Shown here one piece after another: positions 6,074 through 60,112 of a stretch of 64,000 nt of DNA (its first letter is position 1; the number at the start of each line of letters is the position of its first letter). The notes below the pieces were generated by a model. It was not told the DNA's origin. It saw nothing but the letters and a program-made list of their open reading frames with translations, and searched no databases. The position numbers were made by a program, and so were the translations under genes. This DNA is from an uncultured Clostridia bacterium (GTDB taxonomy: Bacteria > Bacillota > Clostridia > TANB77 > CAG-508). Where the stretch lies: assembly GCA_944387565.1 (NCBI GenBank), contig CALXFJ010000002.1:9354-73353 (forward strand), read 5' to 3'.

Positions 6074-7300
6074 TTGGAGGCAGTAGAATTGGAAGAAAAA
6101 AGAAATTTTAAAACCTATAAGATTGTAATGCTAGTAATATTAGTTGCATTTGTTACATTTCTACTAACAACTATAGGAATGTATCAATACTTTACAAAAG
6201 ATGGATTTGGAAAGCAACTAGTAGCAACTTCTAGTAATAATGAAGAAATAGCCAATACATTAACTCAATATAGAAAAATAATAGATAAATATTATTTAGG
6301 AGATATTGATGAAGAAAAACTAAAAGAAGGTGCAATAAAAGGCTATGTAGAAGGACTTGGAGATAAGTATACAGAATATATACCTAAAGAAGAAATGGAA
6401 GACTATATGGCAGATACAACAGGAAATTTTGTAGGAATTGGAATATATATGGTACAAGACACAGAAGCAAATAAAATAATGGTATTATCACCTATAAAAG
6501 GAGGTCCAGCAGAAAAAGCAGGATTACAACCAGGAGATTACATAATAGCAGTAGATGGAGTACAATATACAGGAGAGCAAATGACAGAAGCATCTAATAA
6601 AATAAAAGGAGAAGAAGGCACAACAGTAAAATTAGAAGTACAAAGAGGTAACGAGACTTTAGATTATGAAATAACAAGAGAAAACGTAAAAGTAAATCCT
6701 GTAGAAGGAGAAGTTTTAGATAATAATATAGGTTATATTACATTCTCATCATTTGATGATGGAACAGCAGAAGAATTTAAAGCAAAATATGAGGAACTAG
6801 CAAAACAAGGTATACAATCATTAATAATAGATTTAAGAAATAATGGTGGAGGAATTGTAGATGAAGCTTTAGAAATTGCAAATTATATATTAGATAAAGA
6901 TTCTGTTATTTTATATGAAGTTGATAAAAATAATAATGAAACAGAAGAGAAAACAACAGATGAACCAATTATTAATATACCAATAATAGTTCTTACAAAT
7001 GAAAATACAGCAAGTTCATCAGAAATACTTGCAGGAGCATTAAAAGACCACGGAAAAGCAAAAATAGTGGGAACAAAGACATATGGAAAAGGAGTAATAC
7101 AACAATTATTAACATTACCAGATGGAAGTGGTTTAAAAATAACAGCTGAAGAATATTTAACTCCAAATAAAACCAAAATAAATGGTGTAGGAATAGAACC
7201 TGATGAGATTGTAGAATTACCAGATAGTGTTGAAAATGTATTAAATGTAGATAGAAACGAAGATACACAATTACAAAAAGCAATGGAATTATTAAAGTAA
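6074..7300 (+). CDS. ctpA: carboxy-terminal processing protease (S41) with PDZ domain
   Basis: PDZ domain plus S41 catalytic region (GGGIVDEA...TASSSEILAG). The real start is probably the TTG at 6089 behind the ggagg RBS. Confidence 0.8.
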   Translation: MEAVELEEKRNFKTYKIVMLVILVAFVTFLLTTIGMYQYFTKDGFGKQLVATSSNNEEIANTLTQYRKIIDKYYLGDIDEEKLKEGAIKGYVEGLGDKYTEYIPKEEMEDYMADTTGNFVGIGIYMVQDTEANKIMVLSPIKGGPAEKAGLQPGDYIIAVDGVQYTGEQMTEASNKIKGEEGTTVKLEVQRGNETLDYEITRENVKVNPVEGEVLDNNIGYITFSSFDDGTAEEFKAKYEELAKQGIQSLIIDLRNNGGGIVDEALEIANYILDKDSVILYEVDKNNNETEEKTTDEPIINIPIIVLTNENTASSSEILAGALKDHGKAKIVGTKTYGKGVIQQLLTLPDGSGLKITAEEYLTPNKTKINGVGIEPDEIVELPDSVENVLNVDRNEDTQLQKAMELLK

Positions 7301-51656: not shown

Positions 51657-52688
51657 TTAGTGTTGCTCAGGTATTGCATTTCGTACCATGCATAGATACT
51701 TTAATGCATAATCTATATCTTGAGCAGTAATGATATAATTACCATTATTTTCTTCAATAGAAATATCTTCATCTCTGAATATATTATCTATATCAAATGA
51801 AGAATAATTGTTCCTCCATTCTATCCTTATAGAAGAAATTCTGGTGTTACTACCAATAACAATATCGCCATCAATAGTATGGAACAGAATCCAAGGAGAA
51901 TAAGAATTTGGGTCATATCCATTTGGTAACAATTCATATGTATACTCATTAGGCTCATAGACATGGTCCATAAGGCTTAGAGTGAACCTATTGATTTCAA
52001 TAAGTTCTCTATAATTACGATAACAAGAATCATGATAGAATTTTCCATCAATATAAATGCATGGAGAATCCTTAAAGTCTTTCATCATAAATTTGTTACA
52101 GCAACATTGACAAATTGTACCATCTTTGGGAATATGATACCGAGTTGAATAAAAACTTATAGAACTATTATTATTCTTAAAGTTTTCATAACTTTCAACA
52201 ATACCATGCCTAATTAGCTTATCCCTTTCTTCTTTTGTTGCTTTGATTAACCTAATTGAACCAAGTTTGTCTAGTAAGAGCCAACCAAAGACAACAAATT
52301 CATTGAGAGTTTGATTAGGATGAGATTTGATAAAAAGTGCTCTATCATTTAATAATTCATAGAAAAATGAAAGAGTTACAATTTTATCTTGAACAGCCAT
52401 GATGGAATCAAAATAGTTTTTTGGTTTATCAAAAACTCGTTCCTCATAAGAAATTTCTACAACAGGGAGAGAATTATCTTTACTTTCTCTAGATATTTTG
52501 GCTTGCTTAAGTCTAAAGATTCTTGTTTGTTCTTTAGTGAAATTAGGATGACCAAAAATATCAAAAGATAAAGGAATAATTTGTTCTCCTTGAAAAGAAA
52601 CTTTTACACTATAGGGAAGGGCTAATTTATCCAAAGTGATATGTCCTAAATTGCCAACATTTTTAATTGGCTTATTTTCAATGATCAT
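51657..52688 (-). CDS. hypothetical Cys-rich protein (343 aa)
   Basis: Cys cluster CQCCCNKF...C...HDSC and no recognisable domain. It has its own promoter and leader hairpin (described in the findings). GC is higher than the surroundings. Confidence 0.5.
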   Translation of the reverse strand: MIIENKPIKNVGNLGHITLDKLALPYSVKVSFQGEQIIPLSFDIFGHPNFTKEQTRIFRLKQAKISRESKDNSLPVVEISYEERVFDKPKNYFDSIMAVQDKIVTLSFFYELLNDRALFIKSHPNQTLNEFVVFGWLLLDKLGSIRLIKATKEERDKLIRHGIVESYENFKNNNSSISFYSTRYHIPKDGTICQCCCNKFMMKDFKDSPCIYIDGKFYHDSCYRNYRELIEINRFTLSLMDHVYEPNEYTYELLPNGYDPNSYSPWILFHTIDGDIVIGSNTRISSIRIEWRNNYSSFDIDNIFRDEDISIEENNGNYIITAQDIDYALKYLCMVRNAIPEQH

Positions 52689-53530
52689 GATAGAACCTCC
52701 AAATATTTTAGGTTTTACTGATAAAAATTTCGGAGGTTAATGCCTCCGAAATATCGGATGGCATTTAAATTACCATCATTGATATATATTATACTATTGC
52801 TTTACATAAAATTCAAGAAAAAATTGTGATATCTTGTTTAAAAAAATAAAATTAAGAAAAAATAAATAAATTATTAAGAAAAATAGTATATAATAATAAA
52901 AATTATATATTTGTAAAAAAATAAAACGACTTTTATATATTAGGAAAGTAAAACAATTTGTTTTAAAACTGTACGAAAAATAAAATTTTATCAAAAAACT
53001 TGCGAAAATTTGTTTTACATGATATAAATATGAAAGTGAATGGAGGTGAGGACTTGAAACTAACATTTACATGTGATTTAAGAATAAAAGAGACACAAGA
53101 AAAAATAATAAAATGAAATAAAATTTTCACTTTGTTATATACAATTTTTTTAATCTGTTTTTTTAATTTGATACATTTTATTAATTTCTGGATATTTTAA
53201 ATAGCTAATTTACAAATAAAGAGAGGATTATTTAAAACAAATAGTGGGAAAATAATAAATGCAGATGTAAATGGAAGTATAAATATTCTAAGAAAATATA
53301 TAAAAGAAGTCTTTAGTCCAAACCTAGAAATAGCGATGGATATTGGTCGAGAACAACGACCATTAAAGAAAAGGGTTGCCTAAGGAATTAGGTGGAAACT
53401 TAAAAACAACATCTTTACAAAAATTGCTACTAATTAGAAATTAGTAGCAAGGGTGAAAATTTTAATTTTCACATTTGTTCAAATATGGTATACTAGATAG
53501 GAAATGTAAAAAAGTAAGGGAGATATAAAT

Positions 53531-54350: not shown

Positions 54351-55709
54351 ATGCCAGTAGAAAAAAATCAAGAATATATTGTAGAAATTATAGATAATGG
54401 TTATGAAGGAGAAGGAATTGCTAAAATTGAGAATTTTACAATATTTATTCCTAATAGTATAAAAGGTGAAAAAGTAAGGATTTTAATAGTTAAAGTACTA
54501 AAATCACATGCATTTGGTAAAGTTTTAGAAATAATAAAAACATCAGAATATAGAAAAGAAAGTGATTGTGAAACTTATAAACGCTGTGGAGGTTGTGATT
54601 TAAGACATATTAAATATGAAGAGACACTGAGAATGAAACAAAATGCAGTTCAAAGTTTGGTAAATAAAACTTTAGAAAACAAGGTGAAAGTAGAAGAGAC
54701 TTTAGGAATGGAAAATCCTTATAATTATAGAAATAAAGCTCAGTATCCTGTAGGATTAGATAAAGAAGGAAAACCGATTATAGGAGTATTTGCAAATAGA
54801 ACACATGAAATTATACCAATCAAAGAATGTTTGATACAAAATAAAAAAAGTGAAAATTTAGCTAAATTTGTGCTAGAGTTTATAAAGAAAAATAACATTA
54901 GTGTTTATAATGAAAAAACTACAAAAGGTTTGGTAAGACATATTGTTACTAAAATTGGAATTAAGACAAATGAAATTATGTGTATAATTGTAATTAATGG
55001 TAGAAATATTCCTAAAGAAAAAGAATTAGTAAGTGAAATATTAAAAGCATTTCCAGAAGTTAAAACAATTGTTAAAAATATAAATACTAAAAACACAAAT
55101 GTGATTATGGGAAAAGAAAATATAAATTTATATGGAGATGGATATATAAAGGATAAATTAGGAGATTTTGTATTTAAGATATCACCACTTTCTTTTTACC
55201 AAGTAAATCCTATTCAAGCAGAAAAACTTTATAATATAGCAGTTAAAGGAGCGGAAATTAGCAAAGATGATGTTGTGTTTGATTTATATTGTGGAATTGG
55301 AACAATATCACTATTTATGGCAAAATATGCTAAAAAGGTTTATGGTATTGAGATTGTAGAAGATGCTATAAAAGATGCAAAAGAAAATAGTAAATTAAAT
55401 AATATAAAAAATTCTGAGTTTATTGCAGGAGATGTAGAAATTGTTTTAGATGACTTAATAAATAAGAAGAAAATAATTCCAGATATTATTATGGTAGACC
55501 CTCCAAGAAAGGGACTAGATAATAAAAGTATAAATAATATATTAAAAATTAGTCCTAAAAAAGTGGTTTATGTTAGTTGTAATCCAGCAACACTTGTAAG
55601 AGATTTGAAGAGTTTGGAAGAAAAATATGAAATAAAAACAATAAAACCAGTTGATATGTTTCCATTTAGCAAACATATTGAGTGTGTTTCAGTGCTATGT
55701 TTGAAGTAA
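54351..55709 (+). CDS. rlmD: 23S rRNA (uracil-C5)-methyltransferase RlmD/RumA family
   Basis: TRAM domain, a 4Fe-4S Cys cluster (C...CGGCDLRH) and a C-terminal SAM methyltransferase domain (DPPRKG). Confidence 0.85.
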   Translation: MPVEKNQEYIVEIIDNGYEGEGIAKIENFTIFIPNSIKGEKVRILIVKVLKSHAFGKVLEIIKTSEYRKESDCETYKRCGGCDLRHIKYEETLRMKQNAVQSLVNKTLENKVKVEETLGMENPYNYRNKAQYPVGLDKEGKPIIGVFANRTHEIIPIKECLIQNKKSENLAKFVLEFIKKNNISVYNEKTTKGLVRHIVTKIGIKTNEIMCIIVINGRNIPKEKELVSEILKAFPEVKTIVKNINTKNTNVIMGKENINLYGDGYIKDKLGDFVFKISPLSFYQVNPIQAEKLYNIAVKGAEISKDDVVFDLYCGIGTISLFMAKYAKKVYGIEIVEDAIKDAKENSKLNNIKNSEFIAGDVEIVLDDLINKKKIIPDIIMVDPPRKGLDNKSINNILKISPKKVVYVSCNPATLVRDLKSLEEKYEIKTIKPVDMFPFSKHIECVSVLCLK

Positions 55710-55946
55710 AACTCAAAATTATTGAGATTTGAAAAAATCAAAAAAATATGTAAAAGCAGAGTCAGCAAGGAAAGAAAAACATTCATATCTACCGTATCTA
55801 TACGAGGCATGTTAAGCATATATAGTGAATATATAAAAAATACTTAAATTTAGAAGTTAAAAATAAAATTATAAGAAAGAAGAAGCACTCTAAGTAAAGT
55901 ACTTTGATAAGTGCTTTGTTTTTTGGGGAAAATTCATGACAAACAC

Positions 55947-55996
55947 TTGTCGGAAATCTTCGTAAATGATATAATATTTACGAAGATTTCCGACAA
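55947..55996 (+). promoter_or_regulatory. perfect 21-bp inverted-repeat operator flanking the -10 box of the abiEi promoter
   Basis: ttgtcggaaatcttcgtaaat - gatataat - atttacgaagatttccgacaa. The arms are exact reverse complements. The spacer contains TATAAT. Confidence 0.7.
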
Positions 55997-56012
55997 AGGA
56001 GAAAAAATAGAG

Positions 56013-56606
56013 ATGGATAATATTAAAAAAATTGAAAAATTATTAAATAAGAAAAATGGAATTATAACAACAAGAGAAGTTGAAGAATTAGGAATTAACA
56101 GTAGAATTCTAACAAGGATGATTGAAAGAGGGATAATTGAAAGAGTTGCAAGAGGTGTTTATATAAGTGTAGATACACTAGAAGATACATATTTTATAAC
56201 ACAAGCTATATGTAAAAAAGGTATATTCTCTCATGAAACAGCTTTATATTTTCATGATTTATGCGATAGAACACCTATAAAATATCAATTAACAGTACCA
56301 ACTAATTATAATAACATATTAATAAAAAATAAAAACTATCAATTTTTTTATTTGAAAGAAGAACTATATGAAATAGGTATTACAGAAATAAAAACGCCTT
56401 ATGGAAATAAAGTAAAAGTCTATGATTTAGAAAGAACAATATGTGATATTATAAGAAATAAAAAGAAAATTGAAATAGCTTTATTTACAGACGCAATGAA
56501 AAGATATGCTGATAGAAAAGATAGAGATTCTATTAAATTGCATAAATATGCAAAAATATTTAATATTGAAGATGAACTAAGAAAATATCTGGAGGTTTTG
56601 CTATGA
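56013..56606 (+). CDS. abiEi: AbiEi-family type IV toxin-antitoxin antitoxin/transcriptional regulator
   Basis: N-terminal winged HTH (GIITTREVEELGINSRILTRMIERGIIERVARGVYI). Its stop overlaps the abiEii start (ATGA). The start is placed at the ATG at 56013 behind an aaggag RBS. Confidence 0.75.
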   Translation: MDNIKKIEKLLNKKNGIITTREVEELGINSRILTRMIERGIIERVARGVYISVDTLEDTYFITQAICKKGIFSHETALYFHDLCDRTPIKYQLTVPTNYNNILIKNKNYQFFYLKEELYEIGITEIKTPYGNKVKVYDLERTICDIIRNKKKIEIALFTDAMKRYADRKDRDSIKLHKYAKIFNIEDELRKYLEVLL

Positions 56607-57472
56607 TAGCTAAAAATAGAGCACAACTAAAAGCATGGATAAAAAATATGTCAGCAAAAGTTGATGTGAATGAAAATATAATTCTACAAAATTATATGCT
56701 AGAGAGGCTATTGGAAAGAAGTGCTGTATCAGAATATAAATATAAATTTATATTAAAAGGTGGAATGCTAATAACAGCTATAGTTGGAATAGATATGAGA
56801 AATACACTAGATATGGATGCAACAATAAAAGGTTTTGACTTAGAAAAAGACAACTTAGAAAATATATTAAATGAAATTTTTAATATTGATTTAGATGATG
56901 GTGTAACTTTTGAATTTAGAGGAATAAAAGAAATAAGACAAGAAGATGAATATGGTGGATACAGAGTATCATTAGATGCCAAGTTTGATAAGTTAGTTGT
57001 ACCTATGAAACTAGATATAACAACAGGAGATGTTATTACTCCAAAAGAAATAAAATACAAATTTGATTTGTTGTTTGAAGAGCGTTCTATAGAGATACTT
57101 GATTATAATATGGAAACTGTAATTGCAGATAAATTTGAAACAATTATATCTAGAAATGTTGATACTACAAGAGCAAGAGATTTTTATGATATTTATATTT
57201 TATGGACAACACAACAGAAGAATTTTGATAAGAAATCGTTAAAACAAGCTATTATAAAGAAATTTGAGTATAGAGGCTCTGTTGATAAATTAAATAATAT
57301 AGATGAAATAGTGGAAGTTATAAAAGAAAGTGAAGCTTTAAAAGAACATTGGAAAAACTATCAAGGCAAGTTTAGTTATGCAAAAGATATTAGTTATGAA
57401 GATACAGTGAAAGAGCTAATGGAAATAGTCGATGTTATAAAAAGCAATAGTAATTATAATAAAATATATTAA
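56603..57472 (+). CDS. abiEii: AbiEii/AbiGii-family nucleotidyltransferase toxin
   Basis: Nucleotidyltransferase motif KGGMLITAIVGIDMRNTLDMDAT (G[SG]-x9-13-DxD). 289 aa, translationally coupled to abiEi. Confidence 0.75.
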   Translation: MIAKNRAQLKAWIKNMSAKVDVNENIILQNYMLERLLERSAVSEYKYKFILKGGMLITAIVGIDMRNTLDMDATIKGFDLEKDNLENILNEIFNIDLDDGVTFEFRGIKEIRQEDEYGGYRVSLDAKFDKLVVPMKLDITTGDVITPKEIKYKFDLLFEERSIEILDYNMETVIADKFETIISRNVDTTRARDFYDIYILWTTQQKNFDKKSLKQAIIKKFEYRGSVDKLNNIDEIVEVIKESEALKEHWKNYQGKFSYAKDISYEDTVKELMEIVDVIKSNSNYNKIY

Positions 57473-57587: not shown

Positions 57588-58166
57588 ATGGATATTTATG
57601 AAGAAATATATAATAAAAATAAAAAATTAATAGATAAGGCAATAGAAAAAATAAAAGGATGTGAGAATGACCCATTACATTTTATAGGACATACAATAGA
57701 TGTTATAAATTATGTAAAAGAATTATTAGAAAAATTTTCAGTAAATAAAGAAATATGCATAATATCAGCATATTGGCATGACGTAGGAAGAAGCGTGTGT
57801 GATGAAGGACATGAAGAAAAAAGTGGAAAAATGTTAAAAGAAGAAATGACAAAATTAGGATATAGTAGTGAATTTATAGATGAATGTTATTCAGCAGTTA
57901 CAAATCATAAAAGAAAATATATACCACCAACAATAGAAGGGGTAATTGTAAGAGATGCAGATAAACTTGCATATATTGGAAAAAATAGATGGAAAAGATG
58001 TATTGGAGAAAATCCAGATGCACTTGATGAAATTATAGAAGTTTATTTACCAATATTAAGAAATAAAATATTAAGATTAAATTATTCAAAAGAATTATTT
58101 GATAGAGATATGAATGCTTATGTAAAAGATTATCTAAAAATATGGAAAAAGAGGAGGTCAAAATGA
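57588..58166 (+). CDS. HD-domain phosphohydrolase
   Basis: H...HD...D motifs (GHTIDV, YWHDVGR, RDADKLAY). Preceded by its own extended -10 promoter (TGGTACTAT). Confidence 0.7.
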   Translation: MDIYEEIYNKNKKLIDKAIEKIKGCENDPLHFIGHTIDVINYVKELLEKFSVNKEICIISAYWHDVGRSVCDEGHEEKSGKMLKEEMTKLGYSSEFIDECYSAVTNHKRKYIPPTIEGVIVRDADKLAYIGKNRWKRCIGENPDALDEIIEVYLPILRNKILRLNYSKELFDRDMNAYVKDYLKIWKKRRSK

Positions 58167-58573
58167 GAGTATTTATAATATGTAGTAAAGCATTTTATAA
58201 GGATATAGAACCAATAAAGGAAAAATTAGAAAATATGGGGCATAAAGTAGAATTACCAAATTCATACTATGAAAAAGATGCAGAGAAAAAGAGTTGGGAA
58301 CTAGGAGAACAAGAACACACAAACTTCAAACAAAAAATGTTTAGAATGAGTAGAGAAAGAATAAAAGAAGTAGACGCAGTATTAGCATTAAATTTTGATA
58401 AAAATGAAAAGAAAAATTATATAGGAGGTTCAACATTCCTAGAATTATATGAAGCTTTCATGGAAAATAAGAAAATATATCTATATAATGAAATTCCAGA
58501 AGGAATATTATACGACGAAATATCAGGATTTTCACCAATAATAATAAATGGAAACTTAGATTTAGTAAAATAG
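58163..58573 (+). CDS. nucleoside 2-deoxyribosyltransferase/DNPH1(Rcl)-like protein
   Basis: Flavodoxin-like pattern: an N-terminal beta-strand (RVFIICS) and DAVLAL...IGGSTFLELYEAF, which matches the NDT/DNPH1 nucleophile-Glu block D..GT..E.GYA. A gaggagg RBS precedes the start. Confidence 0.45.
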   Translation: MRVFIICSKAFYKDIEPIKEKLENMGHKVELPNSYYEKDAEKKSWELGEQEHTNFKQKMFRMSRERIKEVDAVLALNFDKNEKKNYIGGSTFLELYEAFMENKKIYLYNEIPEGILYDEISGFSPIIINGNLDLVK

Positions 58574-58583
58574 GTAAAATGAT

Positions 58584-58994
58584 ATGAAAAAAATGAATAT
58601 AATAATGGTATTTAATAAAGAAGAAAATAAAATTCTTATGTGTAAAAGAGAAAAAGAACCATATAAGGGAAAATATAATTTAATTGGTGGAAAAGTAGAA
58701 TTGGGAGAAGATGAAGTATGTGCAGCATATAGAGAACTAAAAGAAGAAACTGGAATAACGAAGGATGATATTAAACTAACTTATTTTATGAATTTTGAAT
58801 ATAAAATAGATGATTTTGAGTTAGAGGTGTTCGTTGGAAAATTAAATAAAGATATAGAATTGGTAGAAGAAATAAATAAACTATATTGGTTTGATAAAAA
58901 TGCAAATTTCTTTAACATAGAAAAATTTGCAGGAGAAGGAAATATTGGACATATATTGTATAAAGTAGAACAGTGTAAAAATAAAATATTTTAA
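58584..58994 (+). CDS. NUDIX hydrolase
   Basis: Nudix box GGKVELGEDEVCAAYRELKEETGI. Confidence 0.8.
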   Translation: MKKMNIIMVFNKEENKILMCKREKEPYKGKYNLIGGKVELGEDEVCAAYRELKEETGITKDDIKLTYFMNFEYKIDDFELEVFVGKLNKDIELVEEINKLYWFDKNANFFNIEKFAGEGNIGHILYKVEQCKNKIF

Positions 58995-59209
58995 AAATTA
59001 AGGAAAACAAGTAAAAGCTTGTTTTTTCTTTCTTTTGGCTTGAGAAAAAATGTAAAGTATGATATATTAAAATAAGTTTTAGAAAAAATAATCTTTATGC
59101 TAAATTCTACAAATTTAGCATAAAAAATGAGTATAATAATATTAGGATGTGTCCCTAAATGGACATTTTGTCCAAAAAGAAACGTCCCCAAATGGACATG
59201 GAGGAAGAT

Positions 59210-60112
59210 ATGGAAGAGTTTAAATCAGGTTTTGTAACATTAATTGGAAGAACAAATGTAGGAAAATCAACATTAATTAATTTGCTAGTTGGTGAAAAGG
59301 TTGCAGCAATAGCAAATAAAGTTCAAACAACTAGAACAGCAATCAAAGGAATTGTAAATCGTAAAAATTCACAAATAATTTTTACAGATACACCAGGAAT
59401 TCATAAACCTAGGACCAAACTAAATGAAACAATGCTAGATACTTCTTTTACTAGTCTTAAAGATGCAGATTTAGTTTTATTTTTAATAGAAGCAACAAGC
59501 ACTGAGATAGGAAGAGGAGATAGTAGGATATTAGAAAAAATAAAAGAAGCAAAAGCAAAAACTATATTAATTATAAATAAGATAGATTTAGTAAAAAAAG
59601 AGAGTTTATTAAAATTGATTGATTTATATAGTAAAGAATATGATTTTGAAGCGGTAATACCGATATCAGCAACAGAGGCAAAATATAGAGATATTATTTT
59701 AAATGAAATAGAAAAGAACTTAAAACCAGGTCCTGCATATTATGATAAAGAGGAGTATACAGACCAAACTTTAAGACAACTTGCTGAAGAAACAATTAGA
59801 GAAAAAGCTTTAAAATTGTTACAAGATGAAGTGCCACATGGTATTTATGTAGAAGTTCAAAAAATGAAGGAAAGAAAAAATAAAAATGGTGAAGATATTT
59901 ATGATATTGAAGCAAATATATATTGCTTAAGAGAATCTCATAAAGGAATAATTATTGGAAAAAATGGAGAAATGTTAAAAAGAATTGGAAGAGCAGCTAG
60001 AATTGATATGGAAGAAAATTTTGGAGTAAGAATAAATTTGAAAACTTGGGTAAAAGTAAAAGAAGATTGGCAAGATAATCTAACAATTGTTAATAATTTT
60101 AAATTAAAATAA
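59210..60112 (+). CDS. era: GTPase Era
   Basis: MEEFKSGFVTLIGRTNVGKSTL is the canonical Era N-terminus. GTPase motifs G1-G4 and a C-terminal KH domain are present. A ggagg RBS precedes the ATG at 59210. Confidence 0.9.
   Translation: MEEFKSGFVTLIGRTNVGKSTLINLLVGEKVAAIANKVQTTRTAIKGIVNRKNSQIIFTDTPGIHKPRTKLNETMLDTSFTSLKDADLVLFLIEATSTEIGRGDSRILEKIKEAKAKTILIINKIDLVKKESLLKLIDLYSKEYDFEAVIPISATEAKYRDIILNEIEKNLKPGPAYYDKEEYTDQTLRQLAEETIREKALKLLQDEVPHGIYVEVQKMKERKNKNGEDIYDIEANIYCLRESHKGIIIGKNGEMLKRIGRAARIDMEENFGVRINLKTWVKVKEDWQDNLTIVNNFKLK

Follow-up and report, generated by a model that had tools for sequence, protein, structure and literature searches.

An AbiE-family toxin–antitoxin cassette and its palindromic upstream region in an uncultured gut Clostridia chromosome

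The AbiE locus

We analyzed a 64,000-nucleotide stretch of DNA from an uncultured Clostridia bacterium (assembly GCA_944387565.1, contig CALXFJ010000002.1, positions 9,354 to 73,353 of the forward strand), hereafter the window, whose internal coordinates are used throughout. It carries an intact toxin–antitoxin pair of the AbiE family on the chromosome of an uncultured gut Clostridia lineage. The pair is specified by two open reading frames (ORFs) on the same (+) strand, 55911–56606 and 56603–57472, which share a 4-nt ATGA at 56603–56606; the translational overlap claimed in an earlier note, made from the sequence alone, is thus present. The layout is that of a bicistron in which the antitoxin gene abiEi comes first and is overlapped by the toxin gene abiEii, each with its own ribosome-binding site (Table 1). 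The module had been taken to begin at the GTG at 55911. This codon is merely the start of the longest possible ORF, which would then cross its own promoter and operator, and we rejected it in favor of the ATG at 56013, which lies 11 nt past the AGGAG. We regard the latter as the true start of abiEi because the ribosome-binding site and start codon are kept in relatives and the gene calls on public contigs agree, giving the same product of 197 amino acids (aa). The exact toxin sequence of the window was found on 15 gut-metagenome contigs, always in an identical context.

Table 1. Features of the AbiE locus and its immediate surroundings
Feature	Coordinates	Strand	Remarks
Possible terminator of the upstream rlmD-like gene	55884–55925	+	AAGCAC...GUGCUU stem, then UGUUUUUU; low confidence
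Left operator arm, TTGTCGGAAATCTTCGTAAAT	55947–55967	.	first six bases TTGTCG (55947–55952) are the predicted -35
Extended -10, TGaTATAAT	55967–55975	+	TG 55967–55968, TATAAT 55970–55975; hexamer in the gap between the arms
Right operator arm, ATTTACGAAGATTTCCGACAA	55976–55996	.	complement of the left arm; predicted to cover the transcription start
Ribosome-binding site of abiEi, AGGAG	55997–56001	+	read from sequence; near-invariant in the upstream alignment
abiEi, antitoxin and predicted autorepressor	56013–56606	+	197 aa; N-terminal winged helix-turn-helix (wHTH) at about residues 7–51, C-terminal antitoxicity domain
Ribosome-binding site of abiEii, GGAGG	56591–56595	+	within the 3' end of abiEi; 8 nt before the toxin ATG
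abiEii, DUF1814 nucleotidyltransferase toxin	56603–57472	+	289 aa
A5 run inside abiEii	56844–56848	+	intact in the window; a 1-nt deletion in loci L046 and L044 frameshifts the toxin
HD hydrolase	57588–58166	+	HD match 1.2e-11; outside the AbiE module
136-aa NDT-fold protein	58163–58573	+	ATGA-coupled to the HD gene; outside the AbiE module
NUDIX hydrolase	58584–58994	+	NUDIX match 9.7e-15; outside the AbiE module

Relationships of the antitoxin and the toxin

The AbiEi protein matches the Pfam domain AbiEi_4 (PF13338) over residues 7–51 (E = 1.4e-11; score 44.7 bits, the cut-off being 25) and the PADLOC AbiEi model PDLC02225 over residues 1–196 (1.2e-72). Against the PDB it recovers the Streptococcus agalactiae antitoxin (6Y8Q and 9HLO chain A) at ~1e-33, with 36% identity over residues 10–197. 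It does not reach the NCBIfam AbiEi equivalog NF047376 (18.7 bits versus the 150 required), and therefore belongs to a subfamily other than that of this narrow model rather than being a non-member. The loop D85-R86-T87-P of AbiEi occupies the position of D85-E86-I87 in the S. agalactiae protein and is invariant within the clade. In S. agalactiae, this loop is needed for a stable complex and for full antitoxicity (10.64898/2026.01.19.700257), and single substitutions in it are tolerated.

The AbiEii protein matches the Pfam AbiEii/DUF1814 family (PF08843) at 7.7e-35 over profile positions 1–229 of 238 and the PADLOC AbiEii model at 9.2e-97, and aligns end to end with chain B of the S. agalactiae structure 9HLO (5.9e-54, 34% identity); a sequence search of the PDB with AbiEii returned no match to MenT. 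Hence, the AbiEi/AbiEii identity that the earlier note had assigned without database searches is borne out by hidden Markov models from both Pfam and PADLOC. The nucleotidyltransferase motif had been given there as G-x11-DxD; it actually reads G53-G54-x15-D70-M-D72, with the x15 spacing reported for the AbiEii family (PMC3985639). Motifs I–IV of that family, defined as hG[GS]-x15-DhD with an Arg as motif II, K...R as motif III and +DxxD as motif IV (PMC3985639), are all present in the form of G53-G54, D70/D72, R66, K177, R184 and R192-D193-F-Y-D196. Every residue whose mutation killed AbiEii toxicity in the same study is kept (G53/G54, R66, D70, D72, K177, R184 and D196), and further key residues are T68, D138, D193/D196 and R224. 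In particular, T68, in the sequence MRNTLDMD, aligns two residues before the DxD with T65 of the S. agalactiae toxin (in SRSTVDID), which is the phospho-acceptor, R184 aligns with the UTP/CTP determinant R180, and R224 with R220.

A predicted promoter embedded in a perfect palindrome

Immediately upstream of abiEi lies an inverted repeat with two arms of 21 nt each that are 100% complementary and separated by the 8-nt gap GATATAAT, bracketing the -10 element exactly as had been claimed (55947–55996). It is the longest perfect inverted repeat (gap ≤20) in the 64-kb window of 26.7% GC, and in 20 first-order Markov simulations of the window the longest repeats attained just 9–14 nt versus the 21 observed. 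A scan with a sigma-70-type consensus placed a TTGTCG-17-TATAAT promoter with an upstream TG exactly on the repeat (55947–55975). Because the predicted promoter falls on the repeat, the left arm holds the -35, the gap holds the extended -10 and the right arm spans the expected transcription start.

Two further structured elements were noted in the window. The second-longest perfect inverted repeat has 19-nt arms, AATAATAAATGAGACAAAT and ATTTGTCTCATTTATTATT, at 38198–38216 and 38231–38249 with a 14-nt gap, and could be another operator or a terminator. Just outside the cassette, the candidate terminator of the upstream rlmD-like gene folds with a minimum free energy of -14 kcal/mol (z = -2.4 versus shuffles), and a similar sequence is also present in one of the related loci (L051).

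Conservation of the palindrome among relatives

Scanning one genome per GTDB species, we recovered the cassette at 61 loci (here numbered with the prefix L) and extracted their upstream regions. Nearly all derive from metagenome-assembled genomes (MAGs) assigned to Clostridium or to uncultured gut Clostridia, which were sampled from humans, mice and chickens, and protein identity is 80–98%. The same 21/8/21 repeat recurs in 32 of the 38 distinct upstream regions, and near-variants occur in three more (20/10/20 twice and 18/14/18 once). A close relative (L008) has a degraded version that was overlooked by the repeat finder, and one region belongs to a distant homolog (33% identical) with a different 12/7/12 repeat.

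An alignment of 37 upstream regions, 36 of them distinct, reveals a regular pattern of constancy and change. Little or no change is seen in the outer TTGYCG, the inner TCGTAAAT or the ribosome-binding site, and none of the 37 regions departs from the TG or from the TAnnAT of the -10. Variation is concentrated in the central 7 nt of each arm, flanked by the outer six and inner eight (near-)invariant bases. The central heptamers fall into the classes GAAATCT (that of the window), GAAACTC, GAAAGTC, TTTTCAT, TTTTCGT and TTTTTAT, and the opposite arm always matches. Overall, 98.5% of 756 arm cells are complementary, and 8 of the 21 positions change jointly on both arms; the mismatches observed are all single transitions. 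The covariation score of 0.373 was reached by none of 500 shuffles (0.124 ± 0.010), and sliding the register by 1–3 columns lowers pairing to 37–48%.

Co-variation of the palindrome with the AbiEi winged helix

The palindrome classes are mirrored in the protein. Operators of the G-class (GGAAA..) and the T-class (GTTTT..) are perfectly separated by AbiEi residues 3, 7, 19, 21, 22, 30, 41, 101 and 104, seven of which lie within the first 55 residues (Fisher p = 0.002). Mean AbiEi identity between the classes is 68% for the N-terminal domain and 87% for the C-terminal domain. Residues 19–22 and 30 would sit where the helices of a winged-helix HTH are expected; searches of the PDB and the literature turned up no DNA-bound structure of a COG5340 antitoxin.

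In two instances, more than one operator class was met with. In the MAG CAZQTH01, the two cassettes present (L017 and L052) differ in operator class, and L051 has an intact cassette along with an orphan operator of another class. These cases offer anecdotal support for insulation between the classes, MAG chimerism being possible. Based on the above, we tentatively propose that operator and AbiEi winged helix have co-diversified into at least two, perhaps five, specificity classes (among AbiEi proteins 79–97% identical), with the C-terminal domain and toxin conserved, so as to form mutually insulated pairs of which several copies could coexist in a single genome without regulatory cross-talk; we place this somewhat short of an even chance. 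If true, the classes would pinpoint the base-reading residues of AbiEi, with T19, R21, E22 and S30 as candidates.

The orphan in L051 (3878–4000) comprises a slightly degenerate AbiE promoter/operator of class GAAACTC and about 15 abiEi codons, joined directly to the upstream side of an HD-domain gene; a truncated cassette of another operator class ends 1 kb before it. It looks like a deletion scar that left a repressible promoter driving a foreign gene.

Horizontal spread and decay of the toxin

Across about 45 species representatives, identity of the cassette proteins is 80–97%, compared with 54–83% for the RlmD encoded next to them. Nucleotide similarity between species begins at 55921–55959, at or just before the operator, and ends at ~57405–57413, about 60 nt short of the toxin stop, with unrelated flanks on either side. 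Of 55 metagenomic rlmD loci from related taxa that were followed by 1.5 kb or more of sequence, just one has AbiE within 7 kb. These features mark the cassette, as judged from sequence comparison, as accessory, mobile and horizontally spread. A metagenome scan with RlmD for an empty rlmD–era site recovered none, returning distant taxa (63–77% identity) in which era was not downstream, and a search of plasmids and phages for the cassette gave no near copy, only distant AbiE genes of about 65% nucleotide identity. In one sister species (L009, 3391–4965), rlmD and the AbiE cassette are separated by an inserted IS200/IS605 element that carries Y1 TnpA and TnpB.

The toxin is often lost: it is frameshifted, truncated or fragmentary in about 10 loci. 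Two of these have independent 1-nt deletions in the A5 run, L046, which is the species representative of the window's own species (98% nucleotide identity), and L044, from a different species, both at about 6241–6242 of the respective locus; about eight further loci retain just truncated toxins or fragments. The A5-run deletions could represent either recurrent toxin inactivation or homopolymer assembly errors.

The neighborhood and the question of defense

The module lies between a gene for an RlmD-type methyltransferase (54351–55709) and era (59159–60112), and the wider neighbors, RecG, a GHMP-type kinase, DedA, RlmD, Era, RecO and HPF, are core housekeeping proteins. Between AbiE and era are three genes that the earlier note had described as HD, NDT and NUDIX and had combined with AbiE into a small defense islet. 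The genes are there, and the NDT (nucleoside 2'-deoxyribosyltransferase) label proves right at the level of the fold. The 136-aa protein in question gave no Pfam, NCBIfam, PADLOC or PDB sequence match even at E = 10, but 918 homologs in a protein search, the best 120 of which are 73–99% identical and come from metagenome assemblies. An AlphaFold2 model from the single sequence was unusable (predicted local distance difference test, pLDDT, 48.6), and one from a 28-sequence alignment reached a pLDDT of 91.6. With the latter, Foldseek retrieved nucleoside 2'-deoxyribosyltransferases, the CMP N-glycosidase BcmB, DNPH1 and YtoQ, with E-values down to 1e-4 and template-modeling (TM) scores of 0.55–0.72. 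Given further that a GG-x-TF-x-E motif is invariant among its homologs, the structural model points to an unannotated family of the NDT superfamily, translationally coupled to the HD hydrolase.

A defense role for this trio is unsupported. PADLOC yields weak generic Cas3-HD matches for the HD protein (1e-4) and a match of the NUDIX protein to the candidate-system model PDC-S07 (1.4e-13), none of which is convincing. In sister species the NUDIX gene keeps its synteny with rlmD and era, and the slot between AbiE and NUDIX is filled by HD and NDT-like genes, by UDG-like and GNAT genes, by a different HD gene or by nothing. A 73%-identical homolog of the 136-aa protein (L086) sits beside a Tag glycosylase, an HD protein, an IMPase and YebC, that is, among genes of DNA repair and metabolism. 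We hence rejected the three genes as a defense system; they look like housekeeping genes.

The situation differs for the cassette family as a whole, for which, and not for the window stretch, a defense association holds. Established or candidate defense genes adjoin the cassette in 8 of 20 relatives inspected, the rest having housekeeping neighbors and, once, the IS200/IS605 element. The cassette abuts a complete Gabija system in L011 (6842–10050; GajA 1.4e-228, GajB 7.9e-186), DRT2 (5.1e-132) and an HSDR_N–NACHT STAND protein in L023 (3069–4397, 6851–9811) and SoFic in L047 (3822–4967; 2.1e-118). It is found beside Avs2-like proteins in L025 (6865–9708) and L027, an AriA/PtuA-like ATPase in L036, and a 1514-aa PDC-M54A-like protein in L031 and L014. 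The neighborhoods in L011, L023, L047 and L025 are small defense islands in uncultured Clostridia. A role in phage defense by abortive infection is plausible for the pair in the window.

Upstream of the rlmD-like gene, three other features were recorded. A 343-aa ORF lacking a Pfam match lies on the minus strand at 51657–52688; next to it, upstream of the DedA/VTT gene, is a very AT-rich region of about 840 nt devoid of a convincing ORF (52689–53530). The segment 50000–50067, the first part scanned, matches positions 14–71 of the Rfam tRNA model, its 3' portion; the match is clipped by the boundary of the scan, so that the start of this tRNA gene probably lies a little upstream of 50000.

A model for AbiE action

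The biochemistry of AbiE has recently been revised by a preprint of January 2026 from the Blower, Genevaux and Fineran groups (10.64898/2026.01.19.700257), which reclassifies the S. agalactiae AbiE as a type VII system. In this study, AbiEi binds AbiEii as a heterodimer (PDB 9HLO) and triggers its autophosphorylation on T65, with loss of the nucleotidyltransferase activity, as in the type VII pair MenA3/MenT3. Unphosphorylated AbiEii transfers UTP in preference to CTP to tRNAs, probably class II tRNAs, and the earlier GTP result was traced to phosphorylated protein. The labels “type IV” and “GTP-type”, which the earlier note had adopted and which go back to Dy et al. 2014, thus give way to type VII and a pyrimidine-specific tRNA nucleotidyltransferase.

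Because T68, R184 and R224 align with T65, R180 and R220 of the S. agalactiae toxin, a pyrimidine-adding toxin silenced by autophosphorylation is the best reading for the window's AbiEii. By homology with the S. agalactiae AbiEii and with Mycobacterium tuberculosis MenT, it most likely adds pyrimidine nucleotides to the 3' ends of tRNAs, thereby arresting translation. The C-terminal domain of AbiEi would dock on AbiEii and induce autophosphorylation of the toxin at the conserved T68, switching it off in type VII style, and the N-terminal winged helix is predicted to bind both 21-bp arms, probably as two cooperating monomers. As these arms would cover the -35 and the transcription start and flank the -10, the operon is likely to repress itself. 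The interpretation of the palindrome as the operator of AbiEi autoregulation was already advanced in the earlier note, and is strengthened by the conservation on both arms and by the co-variation with the DNA-binding domain. The promoter and the genes, up to near the 3' end of the toxin, would constitute the accessory unit whose horizontal spread took place among gut Clostridia. Taken together, we consider it highly probable that this is an intact AbiE toxin–antitoxin pair with a tRNA nucleotidyltransferase toxin neutralized in type VII style, a self-repressing palindrome and a history of horizontal spread.

Alternative explanations

Several points weigh against this model. The mechanism of the pair is read from homology, and the reclassification as type VII stands on a preprint; with DRT in place of DEI in the antitoxin loop, autophosphorylation may be induced in a somewhat different way. 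The toxin appears dispensable, as it is frameshifted or fragmented in the relatives listed above, including the species representative, and a defense role of the subfamily is not established because the S. agalactiae AbiE, when placed in Escherichia coli, gave no protection against 32 coliphages. The association between the operator and the N-terminal domain could partly reflect linkage, these being adjacent stretches of DNA swapped as one recombination block, although such an exchange would still amount to co-inheritance of a matched repressor/operator pair. Finally, two-sided changes are also expected from an RNA or DNA hairpin or from quasi-palindrome correction, and by themselves cannot separate a symmetric protein site from a hairpin.

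The palindrome could accordingly be viewed as a nucleic-acid hairpin or cruciform, serving as a read-through terminator or insulator for rlmD, as a stabilizer of the mRNA 5' end or as a recombination site at the cassette edge: its covariation preserves pairing, a stem of 21 bp would have high stability, the block of inter-species similarity has its left edge at the repeat, and our scan calls it terminator-like on the minus strand. However, three points favor a protein site. With the invariant -35, TG and -10 lying within the repeat, the operon's own transcript would begin inside the right arm and be unable to fold the stem; 14 of the 21 arm positions, namely the outer 6 and inner 8, are kept in sequence beyond what pairing alone would explain; and the operator class tracks the winged-helix residues of AbiEi. 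To these may be added that the homologous S. agalactiae repeats were demonstrated to bind AbiEi (PMC3985639). As a terminator the repeat was rejected on its own terms, in that no run of T follows the stem on the + strand and, on the minus strand, the called terminator shows a poor tail and lacks a convergent gene to end; an Rfam scan by E-value placed the repeat in no family, returning only sub-threshold matches to eukaryotic miRNA hairpin models. Hence, the sequence pattern speaks for an operator bound by protein and against a nucleic-acid hairpin, to which we give very little credence. Long near-perfect palindromes are also known substrates of template-switch correction, and the symmetry might be maintained by mutation alone, with intrastrand template switching copying one arm onto the other, in which case the two-sided changes would say little about function. 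That all arm mismatches are single transitions fits this process, but it leaves unexplained both the near-invariance of the outer TTGYCG, the inner motif, the 8-nt gap and the promoter across about 45 species and the partition of the classes with the wHTH residues. As the principal cause of the pattern it is improbable, and it is in any case compatible with an operator rather than an alternative to it.

More weight attaches to the possibility that the cassette is a selfish addiction or stabilization module, or a stress-responsive toxin–antitoxin system, which has no part in phage defense and persists because its loss is costly. The failure against coliphages just mentioned, the housekeeping neighbors in the window and several relatives, and the frequent decay of the toxin, typical of addiction modules after fixation, all speak for it, and two reports (PMC3985639, PMC11062541) describe AbiE as stabilizing plasmids and integrative and conjugative elements. 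Yet AbiE of Lactococcus lactis is a genuine abortive-infection system, phage T7 is affected by the related SanaTA and RlegTA, and the placement of the cassette beside defense genes in 8 of 20 relatives is a classic guilt-by-association signature. We regard such a purely selfish or stress-related role as a real possibility, if one that we rather doubt, and retain abortive infection as a plausible function of the toxin–antitoxin pair.

Significance

The annotation as such is routine, AbiE pairs being named automatically by PGAP and PADLOC and belonging to a well-studied family. The palindrome at the promoter is unusually clean, but novelty, and that mild, is confined to the way in which operator and winged helix vary together, cleanly and class by class, within a recently spread cassette. 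The roughly 45 gut Clostridia species offer an unusually clean natural experiment on operator recognition by AbiEi, with a fixed architecture, a symmetric variable block of 7 bp per arm and winged-helix substitutions that partition with the block. This comparative set could guide electrophoretic mobility shift assays or structural studies of DNA recognition by COG5340 antitoxins. The unit from promoter to toxin also moves between species, in many cases ends up next to Gabija, DRT2, SoFic or Avs-like genes and repeatedly loses its toxin, which bears on the turnover of toxin–antitoxin and defense modules in the gut microbiome.

Comparison with known systems

The closest characterized counterpart is the AbiE of S. 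agalactiae V/R 2603 (6Y8Q, 9HLO), with the same gene order and overlapping bicistron, proteins of about 195 and 287 aa (197 and 289 aa here), full-length identities of 36% for AbiEi and 34% for AbiEii, and shared essential toxin residues and phospho-acceptor Thr. Its promoter PabiE likewise lies within an inverted repeat of about 50 bp, with the -35 in the outer left arm. More precisely, the S. agalactiae repeat measures 23+3+23 = 49 bp (50 bp here), its -35, TTGCTT, falls in the outer portion of IR1, and AbiEi binds with positive cooperativity, one molecule to each repeat (PMC3985639, PMC7319586). The differences lie in the operator, which has four mismatches there and is a perfect 21+8+21 here, in the antitoxin loop, DEI there and DRT here, and in the host, which here is an uncultured gut Clostridia lineage of 27% GC. 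The arms are unrelated beyond the outer TTGC; by eye about 11 of 21 positions agree starting from this shared TTGC, which is not meaningful in AT-rich DNA, and we rejected it as sequence similarity between the operators.

AbiE of the L. lactis plasmid pNP40, the original Abi system, likewise combines a COG5340 antitoxin with a DUF1814 toxin, a likeness drawn at the level of the family. Among close relatives it alone has been shown to confer an Abi phenotype, which acts against 936-type phages, and it is plasmid-borne, whereas the present cassette is chromosomal and set among housekeeping genes. The proteobacterial SanaTA and RlegTA, active against phage T7 and compared here by description, likewise have a DUF1814 toxin and a COG5340-like antitoxin, for which a conserved antitoxin loop and a phospho-acceptor residue are predicted; RlegA, however, is reported to be encoded downstream of its toxin, the opposite order to that seen here. 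The M. tuberculosis MenAT systems (MenA3/MenT3, MenA1/MenT1 and Rv2827c–Rv2826c) are more remote, the S. agalactiae AbiEii being 16–17% identical to MenT1 and MenT3 and its AbiEi 17.7% to Rv2827c. They nevertheless have in common the DUF1814 fold and modification of the tRNA 3' end, and in MenT3 and MenT1 the antitoxin neutralizes the toxin by inducing it to phosphorylate itself on a Ser/Thr at the corresponding site. Autoregulation by Rv2827c runs via 23-bp inverted repeats, of which there are four, with 13-bp gaps and negative cooperativity.

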